A stretch of DNA of 64,000 nucleotides from Escherichia phage vB_EcoP-ZQ2: sequence record NC_070874.1. The stretch is one strand, 5' to 3'. How positions within the stretch are numbered: the first letter of the stretch is position 1; every line of letters starts with the position of its first letter. The position numbers and the translations under genes were made by a program. Of the stretch, positions 34,646 through 59,154 are shown in pieces. Below the pieces are notes generated by a model. The model was given only the letters and a program-made list of their open reading frames with translations. It made no database searches and was not told where the DNA came from.

Positions 34646-34872
34646 TAGTAGCTTTAACGCAGCTAACGAGGCTAGGCCAGTTAACTATTACCACCGGTGC
34701 TTGTACCAGCAAACAGGATTGATAGTCCGATAATAGATAACTGTATTTGAGCATTATAGTCTACTCATACTCACACCGATAGGTATGTTTTCAATAGCTA
34801 GAGTGCCGGACTGTCTCACCGGCATTGTCTTTAGAGTGCAATGCAATCAGGACTATGTTCTCTATTAATGAG

Positions 34873-34946
34873 TACCCACTACTGGATTTGAACCAGTGAC
34901 TTTCCAATTATTAGTTGGTTGCTTTCCCCGTCTAAGCTAAGTGGGC
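34873..34946 (-). tRNA. tRNA, 74 nt, anticodon read as AAU (Ile-type, atypical A34)
   Basis: hand-folded cloverleaf: acceptor GCCCACT/AGTGGGT (one G-U), D-stem GCTT/AAGC, anticodon stem CCAA/TTGG with loop CTAATAA, T-stem ACTGG/CCAGT with loop TTCAAAT, discriminator A. Confidence 0.6.
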
Positions 34947-55928: not shown

Positions 55929-56371
55929 TAGAATGACCTTAGATAGTTGGTGATACCACTTCTTGTCTCTGTGATCCTCTTAACCTGAACATATACCAGC
56001 TTAAATTCACTACGAGGTAGTTCTTGTAATACTGCTACACCTTCAGTAAGAGCCACAGAACACGCTACAGCGGTTTCTTCTTTAAAGGAGTACAAGTCTT
56101 CATACATGAGGGCTTCATACTCCTTACGGAGCATACAGAGAGCATGTCTTGCCTTATCACTTACTTCTCGTGAACCAGCAGACATAGCTAAGCTGTATAT
56201 GACAAAGACTTGTTCAAAAACAAAGTCTAGTAATCTATCAGGATTGTTAGTCCCCATAAATAATTTTGATGTGTATGAACGAGCTTTACGGTTGAGTTCA
56301 TACTCATCTTCTATGCCTTTATTATAAAGAATGGGATTTCGTTCCCTTTTTCTTAGGAATGGGATACGCAT
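55928..56371 (-). CDS. hypothetical protein
   Basis: 147-aa ORF, start/stop coupled. Confidence 0.4.
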   Translation of the reverse strand: MRIPFLRKRERNPILYNKGIEDEYELNRKARSYTSKLFMGTNNPDRLLDFVFEQVFVIYSLAMSAGSREVSDKARHALCMLRKEYEALMYEDLYSFKEETAVACSVALTEGVAVLQELPRSEFKLVYVQVKRITETRSGITNYLRSF

Positions 56372-56769
56372 TAGTATTTACTACCTCTTCTATACCAGGG
56401 GTAGTGGTGAGTAGTACTCTTACCTTTGAACACATCCTTAGTATGAGGATTCTTTTGTATTTGAGTCAGATAAAGTTGCATATCATCCCCGTATGGGTTA
56501 AGCCAGAACTTATCTATGATTCGGTCTACCTTAGATTTCAAATGTGGTTCTGGAGGAATGTAGGTTTCAACGAATACCTGTCTACCTGTCCAACCATTAG
56601 CTAATGTTTGTTTCATCTTGGAGAGCATATTCTCCAGATTCTTTAATTCAACTTTAGAAACAGTAACATCTATTGAGTCATGAATGCCTGCGTGTGCAAT
56701 TAGCCTTTCTTCCAGCTTACTAAAGTCCATATCATGTAGGACTGATTTACCTCGTCTATTTTGAAACAT
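56371..56769 (-). CDS. hypothetical protein
   Basis: 132-aa ORF. Confidence 0.4.
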   Translation of the reverse strand: MFQNRRGKSVLHDMDFSKLEERLIAHAGIHDSIDVTVSKVELKNLENMLSKMKQTLANGWTGRQVFVETYIPPEPHLKSKVDRIIDKFWLNPYGDDMQLYLTQIQKNPHTKDVFKGKSTTHHYPWYRRGSKY

Positions 56770-56782
56770 AACAGTACCTGTA

Positions 56783-56811
56783 ATTAAAAAAGCCCACGGG
56801 TTAGGTGGGCT
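56783..56811 (-). terminator. rho-independent terminator (minus strand)
   Basis: minus strand GCCCAC-CTAACCC-GTGGGCT followed by TTTTTTAATT. Confidence 0.55.
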
Positions 56812-56886
56812 TGGGTTAGGAGATGGATAAGCAATGAGCTGGAAGTAACTTCCACAAGCATCACTATGTAATGATGCTTAGGTTAG

Positions 56887-57183
56887 TTACTCTGCTTTAC
56901 TGCTCGTGTGAGACACGTTGTATTGGTTACCACTGCCAACGTTAACGATTGTAGTCTGTGATTGCCCTTTATTAGACAGTGACCAAATCAGTGCTACTGC
57001 CCAAAATACTAGTGACCAGCCCAATACGATATTAAGCACACCAATACCCCATTTAGAGGCATGTCCTCGTGCAAAAGCAATGATAGTAGGGATAAGGTAT
57101 ACAGCTAATATGAATAACAGTACAAGGATTGCTGCTAAAGATTCCATGATGGTTCCTATGTGGGGTTGAGTTAGTTTCTTCAC
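56887..57183 (-). CDS. superinfection immunity protein (Imm-like membrane protein)
   Basis: 98 aa; ...YLIPTIIAFARGHASKWGIGVLNIVLGWSLVFWAVALIWSL... matches the Imm-family pattern. Confidence 0.65.
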   Translation of the reverse strand: MKKLTQPHIGTIMESLAAILVLLFILAVYLIPTIIAFARGHASKWGIGVLNIVLGWSLVFWAVALIWSLSNKGQSQTTIVNVGSGNQYNVSHTSSKAE

Positions 57184-57220
57184 AAATAGCCCAACAATGC
57201 TGGGCTATTTAGGCAGCTAC

Positions 57221-57430
57221 TTACTCAGAGTCTTTGCTTGCAGGAGCAAGAGCTTTCTTCAGGTAATTACGTACCGAACGATAGGTTTCTTTGGTTTCTA
57301 TATAGTTATTATCTACAAATATGACGCGTGCATGGTCAGACTGTGGAATCTGTTCTACTGCAATTACATTTGTAGCATTAATGGTTAAGCGTACATCTGA
57401 GGTTGCATGAGTTACTTGAAATACTGACAT
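57221..57430 (-). CDS. hypothetical protein
   Basis: 69-aa ORF. Confidence 0.35.
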   Translation of the reverse strand: MSVFQVTHATSDVRLTINATNVIAVEQIPQSDHARVIFVDNNYIETKETYRSVRNYLKKALAPASKDSE

Positions 57431-57439
57431 GAGTTTTCC

Positions 57440-57946
57440 TTATTTACTGCTTCTTGCAGCTACTGGTTTGTTTTCCTGGTTCTGATACTTGCCATTGTAA
57501 TTAGCAGGTTCTTGAACCAGATGAAATAATACTTGAGCTATCCCAGCACCAGCCGGGATATGTAATTTCTTACGACCATGATAGACCAGTTCAAGAGTCA
57601 AATACCCTTTCCATCCTGGTTCTATTACGGTATTGAATACTGATAATGCACGCCTTGCCCATGTAGACTTGTCGTGAACGATAGCTACACAGGAAGGGGA
57701 CATGTTAAACTTCTCAATTGCTGAAGCCAATGTGAACTTACCGAGATGTCGTGATACTTGATTTCCATCAACGACCTTCACCATTGGAATCAACCCAAAT
57801 AAGCGATAGAAGGTAATATCTTGTTTGATGCGAATATCATAACCAGCTTCACCCAATCCATAGCTTACACCATGCTCGGATATCTTACGGTCTGGGACAT
57901 CCAACAACTGAGATGAACGATATAGAGAATTACCATTAACAACCAT
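57440..57946 (-). CDS. dCTP deaminase (dUTPase-fold)
   Basis: GYDIR, EPGWKGYLTLEL and AGIAQVLF motifs characteristic of the dCTP deaminase/dUTPase family. Confidence 0.7.
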   Translation of the reverse strand: MVVNGNSLYRSSQLLDVPDRKISEHGVSYGLGEAGYDIRIKQDITFYRLFGLIPMVKVVDGNQVSRHLGKFTLASAIEKFNMSPSCVAIVHDKSTWARRALSVFNTVIEPGWKGYLTLELVYHGRKKLHIPAGAGIAQVLFHLVQEPANYNGKYQNQENKPVAARSSK

Positions 57947-59154
57947 TATTTCATTCCTTTAGGGATATGAACTACCTCCCCAAAAGGTACGGTAGCATTG
58001 GGATTATTCAGAACACACCAGATGATAGGGATATCAAATGGCAATTCTTCCATTGGACGAACATACATATCGGAGAATATGATTGCAGCGGTTGGCTTAT
58101 TCTTAATAATCCAATCGCGTACTGGTTCAAGGTTTGTACCACCACGACCGGTAATCTTAATCTCTTCGAATGTATCTTCTTCAGTGATGTCTATCTCTTC
58201 CTGGATAATATCGTCGAAGGTAATTAGGGACATCTTCTTAGGATTGAACTGGCTCTTAACATAGGCAACCTCTGAGTTAAAACGTAGAGAGTCAGCACTA
58301 CTAATAGAACCAGATACATCCTCAAAGTAGGCTAAGTGACGTAGACGTCCTTCATCATCTTCCAGTGAAGGTAGATAGATGTCAGTGTAACGACGGTTAG
58401 GTCTGGCCCACGTATAGTGAGTGTCATCAATGTCGGTAAAGAAGTTCATCAGAACTTCCTGCCATGGAACCACTGGTTTAAGGAATTGGGTAATAACCTC
58501 TTCCATACGACCAGCACCCTTACCAGGCATCTGTCCACCAGCCATCTTCTGGCTCTGCATTGCACGTACTACGTTGTTGACGACAGCACCCTGGGACTGC
58601 CCCGAAGTGGGGGATTTCATGTCGCCAGCAAGACCTGCTCCAGCACCCCCCGATGGCTTCTGCCTTTTCTGAGGGTTCTTCATCAGGTCATCGTAGATGT
58701 CTTCTTCGACCCATCCTTTATATTGAGGGTCTTTACAAATACCTTCATTGATACCAGTGAACTTGTAACCATCTTCCTCTAGCTGAAGGTTAATAAAGTG
58801 GTCACATGCCTGGTTCCAGACTTCCGGGTCACGGCTACCACGACGGATGTCGTGTAGATATGCCACATGCCATAGTTCGTGCATTAATACTGTTTCTCTT
58901 GCATCTGGACACATCCAGATAAAGAAGTCTGGGTTGAAGTGAAGTTCTACCCCATCAGTACATGCAGTGGGACAATCCTCACGTTTCCATGAGAATTTAA
59001 GACTACACAGTAATGAACCAAAGAACGCAGCAGACTTGCCTAGGAAAGCCTGAGCCTGAATACGGTCATACTCACGCATGAGTTGTTCATCACTAAGTGT
59101 GTGCTGAGGAAATTGGTTCATATTGTGATTATCCATGAATGTAACGAGAGACAT
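57946..59154 (-). CDS. vWA-domain protein with N-terminal HExxH metallopeptidase-like motif
   Basis: HELWH motif; MIDAS-like DVSGSIS; 402 aa; coupled to AAA ATPase gene. Confidence 0.65.
   Translation of the reverse strand: MSLVTFMDNHNMNQFPQHTLSDEQLMREYDRIQAQAFLGKSAAFFGSLLCSLKFSWKREDCPTACTDGVELHFNPDFFIWMCPDARETVLMHELWHVAYLHDIRRGSRDPEVWNQACDHFINLQLEEDGYKFTGINEGICKDPQYKGWVEEDIYDDLMKNPQKRQKPSGGAGAGLAGDMKSPTSGQSQGAVVNNVVRAMQSQKMAGGQMPGKGAGRMEEVITQFLKPVVPWQEVLMNFFTDIDDTHYTWARPNRRYTDIYLPSLEDDEGRLRHLAYFEDVSGSISSADSLRFNSEVAYVKSQFNPKKMSLITFDDIIQEEIDITEEDTFEEIKITGRGGTNLEPVRDWIIKNKPTAAIIFSDMYVRPMEELPFDIPIIWCVLNNPNATVPFGEVVHIPKGMK

Follow-up and report, generated by a model that had tools for sequence, protein, structure and literature searches.

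The one experimentally characterised relative is Imm of phage T4 (NP_049660, 83 aa), the founder of the Pfam family PF14373 (Imm_superinfect). T4 Imm and a fragment of the tape measure protein gp29 co-purify, and cryo-EM has placed Imm against the hydrophobic patch of the tape measure helical bundle; the substitutions W50A and R33A weaken exclusion, and it has been proposed that Imm keeps the tape measure protein from opening a conduit in the inner membrane (bioRxiv 10.64898/2026.03.06.709160). An Imm-family protein also belongs to the core genome in AP22-like phages (PMC5795418), and, according to the 2025 preprint on N4 lysis, N4 has no characterised system of superinfection exclusion (PMC12642591). 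Among the N4-like phages, gp27.1 of G7C (AEL79635.1, HQ259105 13358-13618) is annotated as a 'putative membrane immunity protein', and the record refers to Imm of JS98. No literature on Imm experiments in Gamaleyavirus or Schitoviridae was found, the one near candidate being concerned with Kagunavirus.

The DNA analysed here, referred to as the window, is a stretch of 64,000 nt from Escherichia phage vB_EcoP-ZQ2 (NC_070874.1). It was 92-93 % identical in DNA sequence over 24 kb to Gamaleyavirus phages, e.g. HK2, pSb-1 and IME11, and 86-92 % identical to phages of this genus around the gene considered below; it also encodes a virion RNA polymerase of 3611 aa. A virion RNA polymerase is the hallmark of the N4-like Schitoviridae, which are virulent podoviruses. 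By both features the window is assigned to Gamaleyavirus, as an N4-like (G7C-type) virulent podovirus, in agreement with the virulent-type genome that the initial annotation had assumed. That annotation had also placed an Imm-like membrane protein at 56887..57183 and quoted a motif from it; the ORF listing of the window does contain a minus-strand ORF at 56887..57183 (98 aa, GTG start), and its translation includes the quoted LIPTIIAFARGHASKWGIGVLNIVLGWSLVFWAVALIWSL. The gene itself, imm, most likely starts at an internal ATG at 57147, giving a CDS of 86 aa plus stop codon at 56887..57147 (-), which was identified as an orthologue of G7C gp27.1 from Pfam, PHROG and BLASTP matches, synteny, alignment and dN/dS.

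The window protein matched PF14373 over the complete profile (positions 1-42 of 42) with 60.2 bits (E=1.8e-16), compared with a gathering score of 27.9 bits and with 58.2 bits, an equal level, for T4 Imm itself. PHROG 1039, 'immunity to superinfection', matched with E=1e-32, and BLASTP against T4 Imm (sequence from NC_000866, 26373-26624) gave 31 % identity over 48 aa (E=2e-9). The resemblance to the Imm family pattern on which the initial annotation had relied was thus confirmed by a family-level HMM search, and the three matches place the window protein in the Imm_superinfect family. The Pfam match covers residues 16-57 of the 86 aa (28-69 of the 98-aa ORF; 56977..57102, -) and includes R27 and W44, which align with R33 and W50 of T4 Imm. 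Y17, P20, R27, G28, S31, I35, W49 and W55 were invariant among the N4-like orthologues and T4, and W44 nearly so. NCBIfam and PADLOC searches with the window protein returned nothing meaningful.

On sequence and position, imm is the Gamaleyavirus orthologue of G7C gp27.1. The two proteins share a length of 86 aa and about 94 % identity, and their genes share the slot between the gp27 and gp29 homologues as well as the upstream hairpin and the downstream terminator, whereas the window differs from G7C in having an extra 132-aa ORF after the terminator. Identity across the orthologue group was 73-98 %, synteny was conserved in seven loci, and the flanking hairpins were alignable among the window, G7C, nithesis, PGN829.1, U1G, SP5M and Moo19 (the seven aligned loci). 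The slot is filled alike in G7C, nithesis, U1G, SP5M, PGN829.1, Moo19 (Moovirus) and a distant N4-like metagenomic contig. The nearest database protein was 98 % identical to the window Imm and no identical protein was found in the databases, so that the window Imm is a new allele. The identification of imm as an Imm-family gene is correct but not new, and its impact on annotation is small, since the gene is already labelled in this way in G7C and dozens of related records from sister phages.

Compared with T4 Imm, the window protein is of similar size and likewise has two hydrophobic helices and a basic loop, with the equivalents of R33 and W50 conserved, and both genes belong to virulent phages and stand among nucleotide-metabolism and replication genes; the two proteins differ in their low identity (31 %) and in their unrelated tails. 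Hydropathy analysis of the window protein gave two hydrophobic segments (about residues 3-26 and 33-57) with the basic loop RGHASK between them and a polar tail. An AlphaFold2 model built with 34 orthologues, of moderate confidence (pLDDT 66.8), comprised a helix at residues 2-26, a loop at 27-33 (RGHASKW), a helix at 34-63 and a disordered tail at 64-86. In its size and in the short basic loop between its hydrophobic helices, the protein matches the layout of the Imm family (about 80-90 aa), and by the positive-inside rule RGHASK would fit a cytoplasmic loop (cf. the inner-membrane location and periplasmic N-terminus expected for the family). Foldseek of the model against viral structures gave no match at E<=0.001, which is expected for a plain helical hairpin modelled with moderate confidence. 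The sole sequence match among solved structures, the designed repeat protein 8erw, was rejected as spurious because it consisted of weak, repeated 25-residue stretches that fail on their own.

Within the genus, core residues 1-62 are nearly fixed. The C-terminal tail (residues 63-86; window 56887..56961, -) is more variable, and at least two alleles of it exist in the genus, one with QSQTTIVNVGSGNQYNVS... and one with QNQVTNVTVVQTNGGSKAE; the QNQVTNVTVVQTNGGSKAE allele has an 18-nt deletion and contains a diverged segment. In the window protein the tail is of the long 'QSQTTIVNVGSGNQYNVS' type.

Outside the N4-like phages, the nearest phage homologues were found in myoviruses, namely Acinetobacter myophages (AP22-like/Obolenskvirus; 60-64 % identity) and T4-like Citrobacter/Klebsiella phages (47-52 %), giving 47-64 % identity over the core for the two groups together. 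Unlike the window phage, these relatives are contractile-tailed and possess a tape measure protein, and their Imm proteins have been annotated by homology only. In N4, gp28 resembles imm in its position between gp27 and gp29 and in its similar size (80 aa), but it is unrelated in sequence and gave no Pfam match. It was therefore rejected as a hidden Imm homologue, from which it follows that N4 has no homologue of Imm.

We favour the reading, with a probability of about 60 %, that the imm product is an inner-membrane superinfection-exclusion protein of the Imm_superinfect family. The blocking of DNA entry that the initial annotation had ascribed to it would be a property transferred from one characterised homologue, T4 Imm. 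By this analogy, the protein would be made before the virion genes, a timing that gene position suggests, and would insert into the inner membrane; there it may prevent a phage that arrives later from opening the channel through which its genome crosses the membrane, and incoming DNA would thereby be kept out of the cytoplasm. Candidate targets are the ejection proteins of N4-like phages, which insert into the membrane, or the tape measure proteins of long-tailed competitors. T4 Imm acts via the tape measure protein gp29, whereas the N4-like podoviruses are not known to have such a protein, so that homotypic exclusion would require some other target. imm is a well-defined candidate for the exclusion function of N4-like phages and could fill this missing role.

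With regard to the target, we tentatively propose, as a possibility that we consider rather doubtful, that Imm, fixed in a podovirus clade that lacks a tape measure protein, either has a target other than that in T4 (the N4-like ejection proteins) or acts across families on the tape measure proteins of competitors. In the first case imm would be the missing exclusion system of the group and possibly the source of a lysis-inhibition signal; in the second it would represent cross-family exclusion by a virulent podovirus. Either, if true, would show the generality of the Imm mechanism, and imm bears on whether the newly described Imm/tape-measure mechanism also reaches phages that have no such protein. 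If the protein does exclude other phages, there may also be consequences for phage cocktails, in which co-infection of one host by a G7C-like phage and T-even or other phages would possibly be reduced.

The match to PF14373 alone does not prove exclusion, given the size of the family and its cellular members. The family comprised 7176 clusters at 50 % identity (E<=1e-3), and the domain is also found fused to zinc-ribbon, DUF2510 and SHOCT domains. A scan of a genome collection with narrow, alignment-derived patterns returned 10 loci, a result that shows cellular copies and is no census of the family. In Chryseobacterium hagamense (L019 3866..4279, +) the Imm_superinfect domain is followed in the same protein by a SHOCT domain at the C-terminus, and the gene lies among housekeeping genes (peptidase M3, YchJ-like and FKBP), directly between the first two, with no phage genes found within 4 kb on either side. 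The Imm_superinfect family is thus not restricted to phage exclusion genes, and its size and partly cellular membership, as illustrated by the Chryseobacterium copy and its neighbours, would also suit a generic membrane protein of PF14373 that serves some purpose besides exclusion, such as in membrane state, in the timing or inhibition of lysis, or in protection from a pore-forming toxin. A role in lysis would be in keeping with the rIIA and rIIB homologues a few genes from imm and with the lysis inhibition linked to superinfection in N4-like phages, but N4, which lacks imm, shows lysis inhibition, and its lysis genes gp60-63 form a separate cassette (PMC12642591). As the sole experimentally characterised member of the family is an exclusion protein (bioRxiv 10.64898/2026.03.06.709160), we regard a role other than exclusion as unlikely.

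An alternative that retains exclusion is that tape measure binding of the T4 type protects the infected cell from long-tailed competitors (T-even-like and other phages) and not from N4-like phages. T4 Imm binds gp29 through a surface that includes W50, and the equivalents of both W50 and R33 are conserved in the window protein, the nearest phage homologues of which outside the N4-like phages belong, as noted, to myoviruses. The identity to T4 Imm is only 31 %, however, and the conserved R and W may be structural features of the family rather than specific to a target, since the family is very broad and these positions are conserved across it, including in cellular members. Protection confined to competing long-tailed phages thus appears quite improbable, and exclusion at the inner membrane by an Imm_superinfect protein remains the preferred reading, whichever the target.

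Whether the minus-strand frame is translated was examined by comparing codons 1-62 between all pairs of the seven aligned loci using the Nei-Gojobori method. dN/dS for this core was 0.02-0.26, with dS reaching values above 1 relative to Moo19, indicating that synonymous changes dominate in the minus-strand frame; the imm core is under purifying selection, and imm is a real, conserved coding gene. The idea that 56887..57183 (-) is a chance ORF, or the shadow of an opposite-strand ORF at 56918..57169 (+), can be dismissed: 98-aa ORFs are not rare in a six-frame scan of 64 kb and the plus-strand ORF, of 83 aa, does overlap imm, but the full-length Pfam match (E=1.8e-16), the conservation of both the ribosome-binding site and synteny, and the dN/dS values refute it, and it is the plus-strand ORF that is the shadow of imm.

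The start of imm was placed at 57147 rather than 57183 on account of a hairpin at the GTG, a conserved ribosome-binding site at the ATG, gaps in Moo19 and the annotation of the orthologues. The pairing of a 13-bp hairpin (57211..57183) ends with the G of GTG 57183, and the GTG is not preceded by a ribosome-binding site, whereas an AGGA ribosome-binding site lies at 57154-57157, 6 nt upstream of the ATG, and the ATG with its AGGA/GGAG box is kept in all seven aligned loci. In the alignment, Moo19 has two gaps of 2 nt each between GTG and ATG, by which the GTG frame is lost, and a 261-nt version of the gene is annotated in G7C, nithesis and Moo19. The GTG was accordingly ruled out as the start by the hairpin stem, the absent ribosome-binding site and the loss of frame in Moo19. 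The same loss of frame, with the conservation of the ribosome-binding site and the starts of the orthologues, makes the 12 codons upstream of the ATG (57148..57183, -) most likely a 5' untranslated leader that holds the AGGA box. In the GenBank record of PGN829.1 (MH733496; L004 886..1144), imm is represented by a pair of short CDSs, of which one is placed on the opposite strand. In the alignment the reading frame of codons 1-62 is unbroken, and the split annotation looks like an artefact.

The initial annotation had described the gene as flanked by terminators, which held for the downstream side only. Between the stop codon of the gp27 homologue and imm there is the conserved 13-bp hairpin (57183..57211, -) found by folding and alignment; its stem shows a compensatory A-T to T-A change in Moo19, and it is annotated as a stem_loop in G7C, but it has no U-run and is therefore not a canonical intrinsic terminator. 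Downstream of the imm stop codon there is a series of three conserved hairpins (56784..56890, -), of which the third alone is a canonical terminator. The first, stable hairpin starts at the stop codon itself (56845..56890, -, by folding and alignment; inner 11-bp stem 56855-56880). In PGN829.1 the equivalent segment has a different sequence with the pairing retained, a pattern that points to selection on the RNA structure, which might serve as a 3' stabiliser or for processing. A small GGAAG...CTTCC hairpin separates it from the terminator (56784..56812, -), which has an 8-bp stem with five GC pairs, a 7-nt loop and a U-run, and which ends the imm transcription unit; this element was identified by folding and alignment, and its equivalent is labelled 'terminator' in the SP5M record. 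The terminator stem (56812..56790) lies about 75 nt past the imm stop codon, behind the two other conserved hairpins, and the 116-nt spacer downstream of imm folds far better than shuffled controls (z = -4.6). Rfam searches of 56300-57700 detected no known RNA family, with only a far sub-threshold match of a miRNA model to the upstream hairpin, and no sigma-70-like promoter was found directly upstream of imm.

imm lies in a block of nucleotide-metabolism and replication genes on the strand opposite to the virion genes. The order on the minus strand is an AAA ATPase (gp24 homologue), the gp25 homologue, a dCTP deaminase, the gp27 homologue, imm, the 132-aa ORF, the gp29 homologue and ThyX, and the block also includes rIIA/B. 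The 132-aa ORF (56371..56769, -) matched PHROG 12812 and had no Pfam match; it occupies the stretch from the imm terminator to the gp29 homologue, a variable slot that is empty in G7C, holds the same ORF in U1G and PGN829.1, and holds ORFs with divergent starts in nithesis, SP5M and Moo19. G7C has an HNH homing endonuclease, gp24.1 (L001 1596..2072), between gp24 and gp25 that is absent from the window, where a 26-nt overlap (59129..59154) joins the homologues of gp24 and gp25. The gp25 homologue (57946..59154, -) is labelled 'HNH endonuclease' by PHROGs, a label that is probably misleading; its equivalent in a related contig (L008) matched Pfam DUF2201_N/DUF2201. Elsewhere in the window, ARAGORN identified a single tRNA-Ile with the anticodon AAT (34872..34946, -), an anticodon that is uncommon in bacterial systems.
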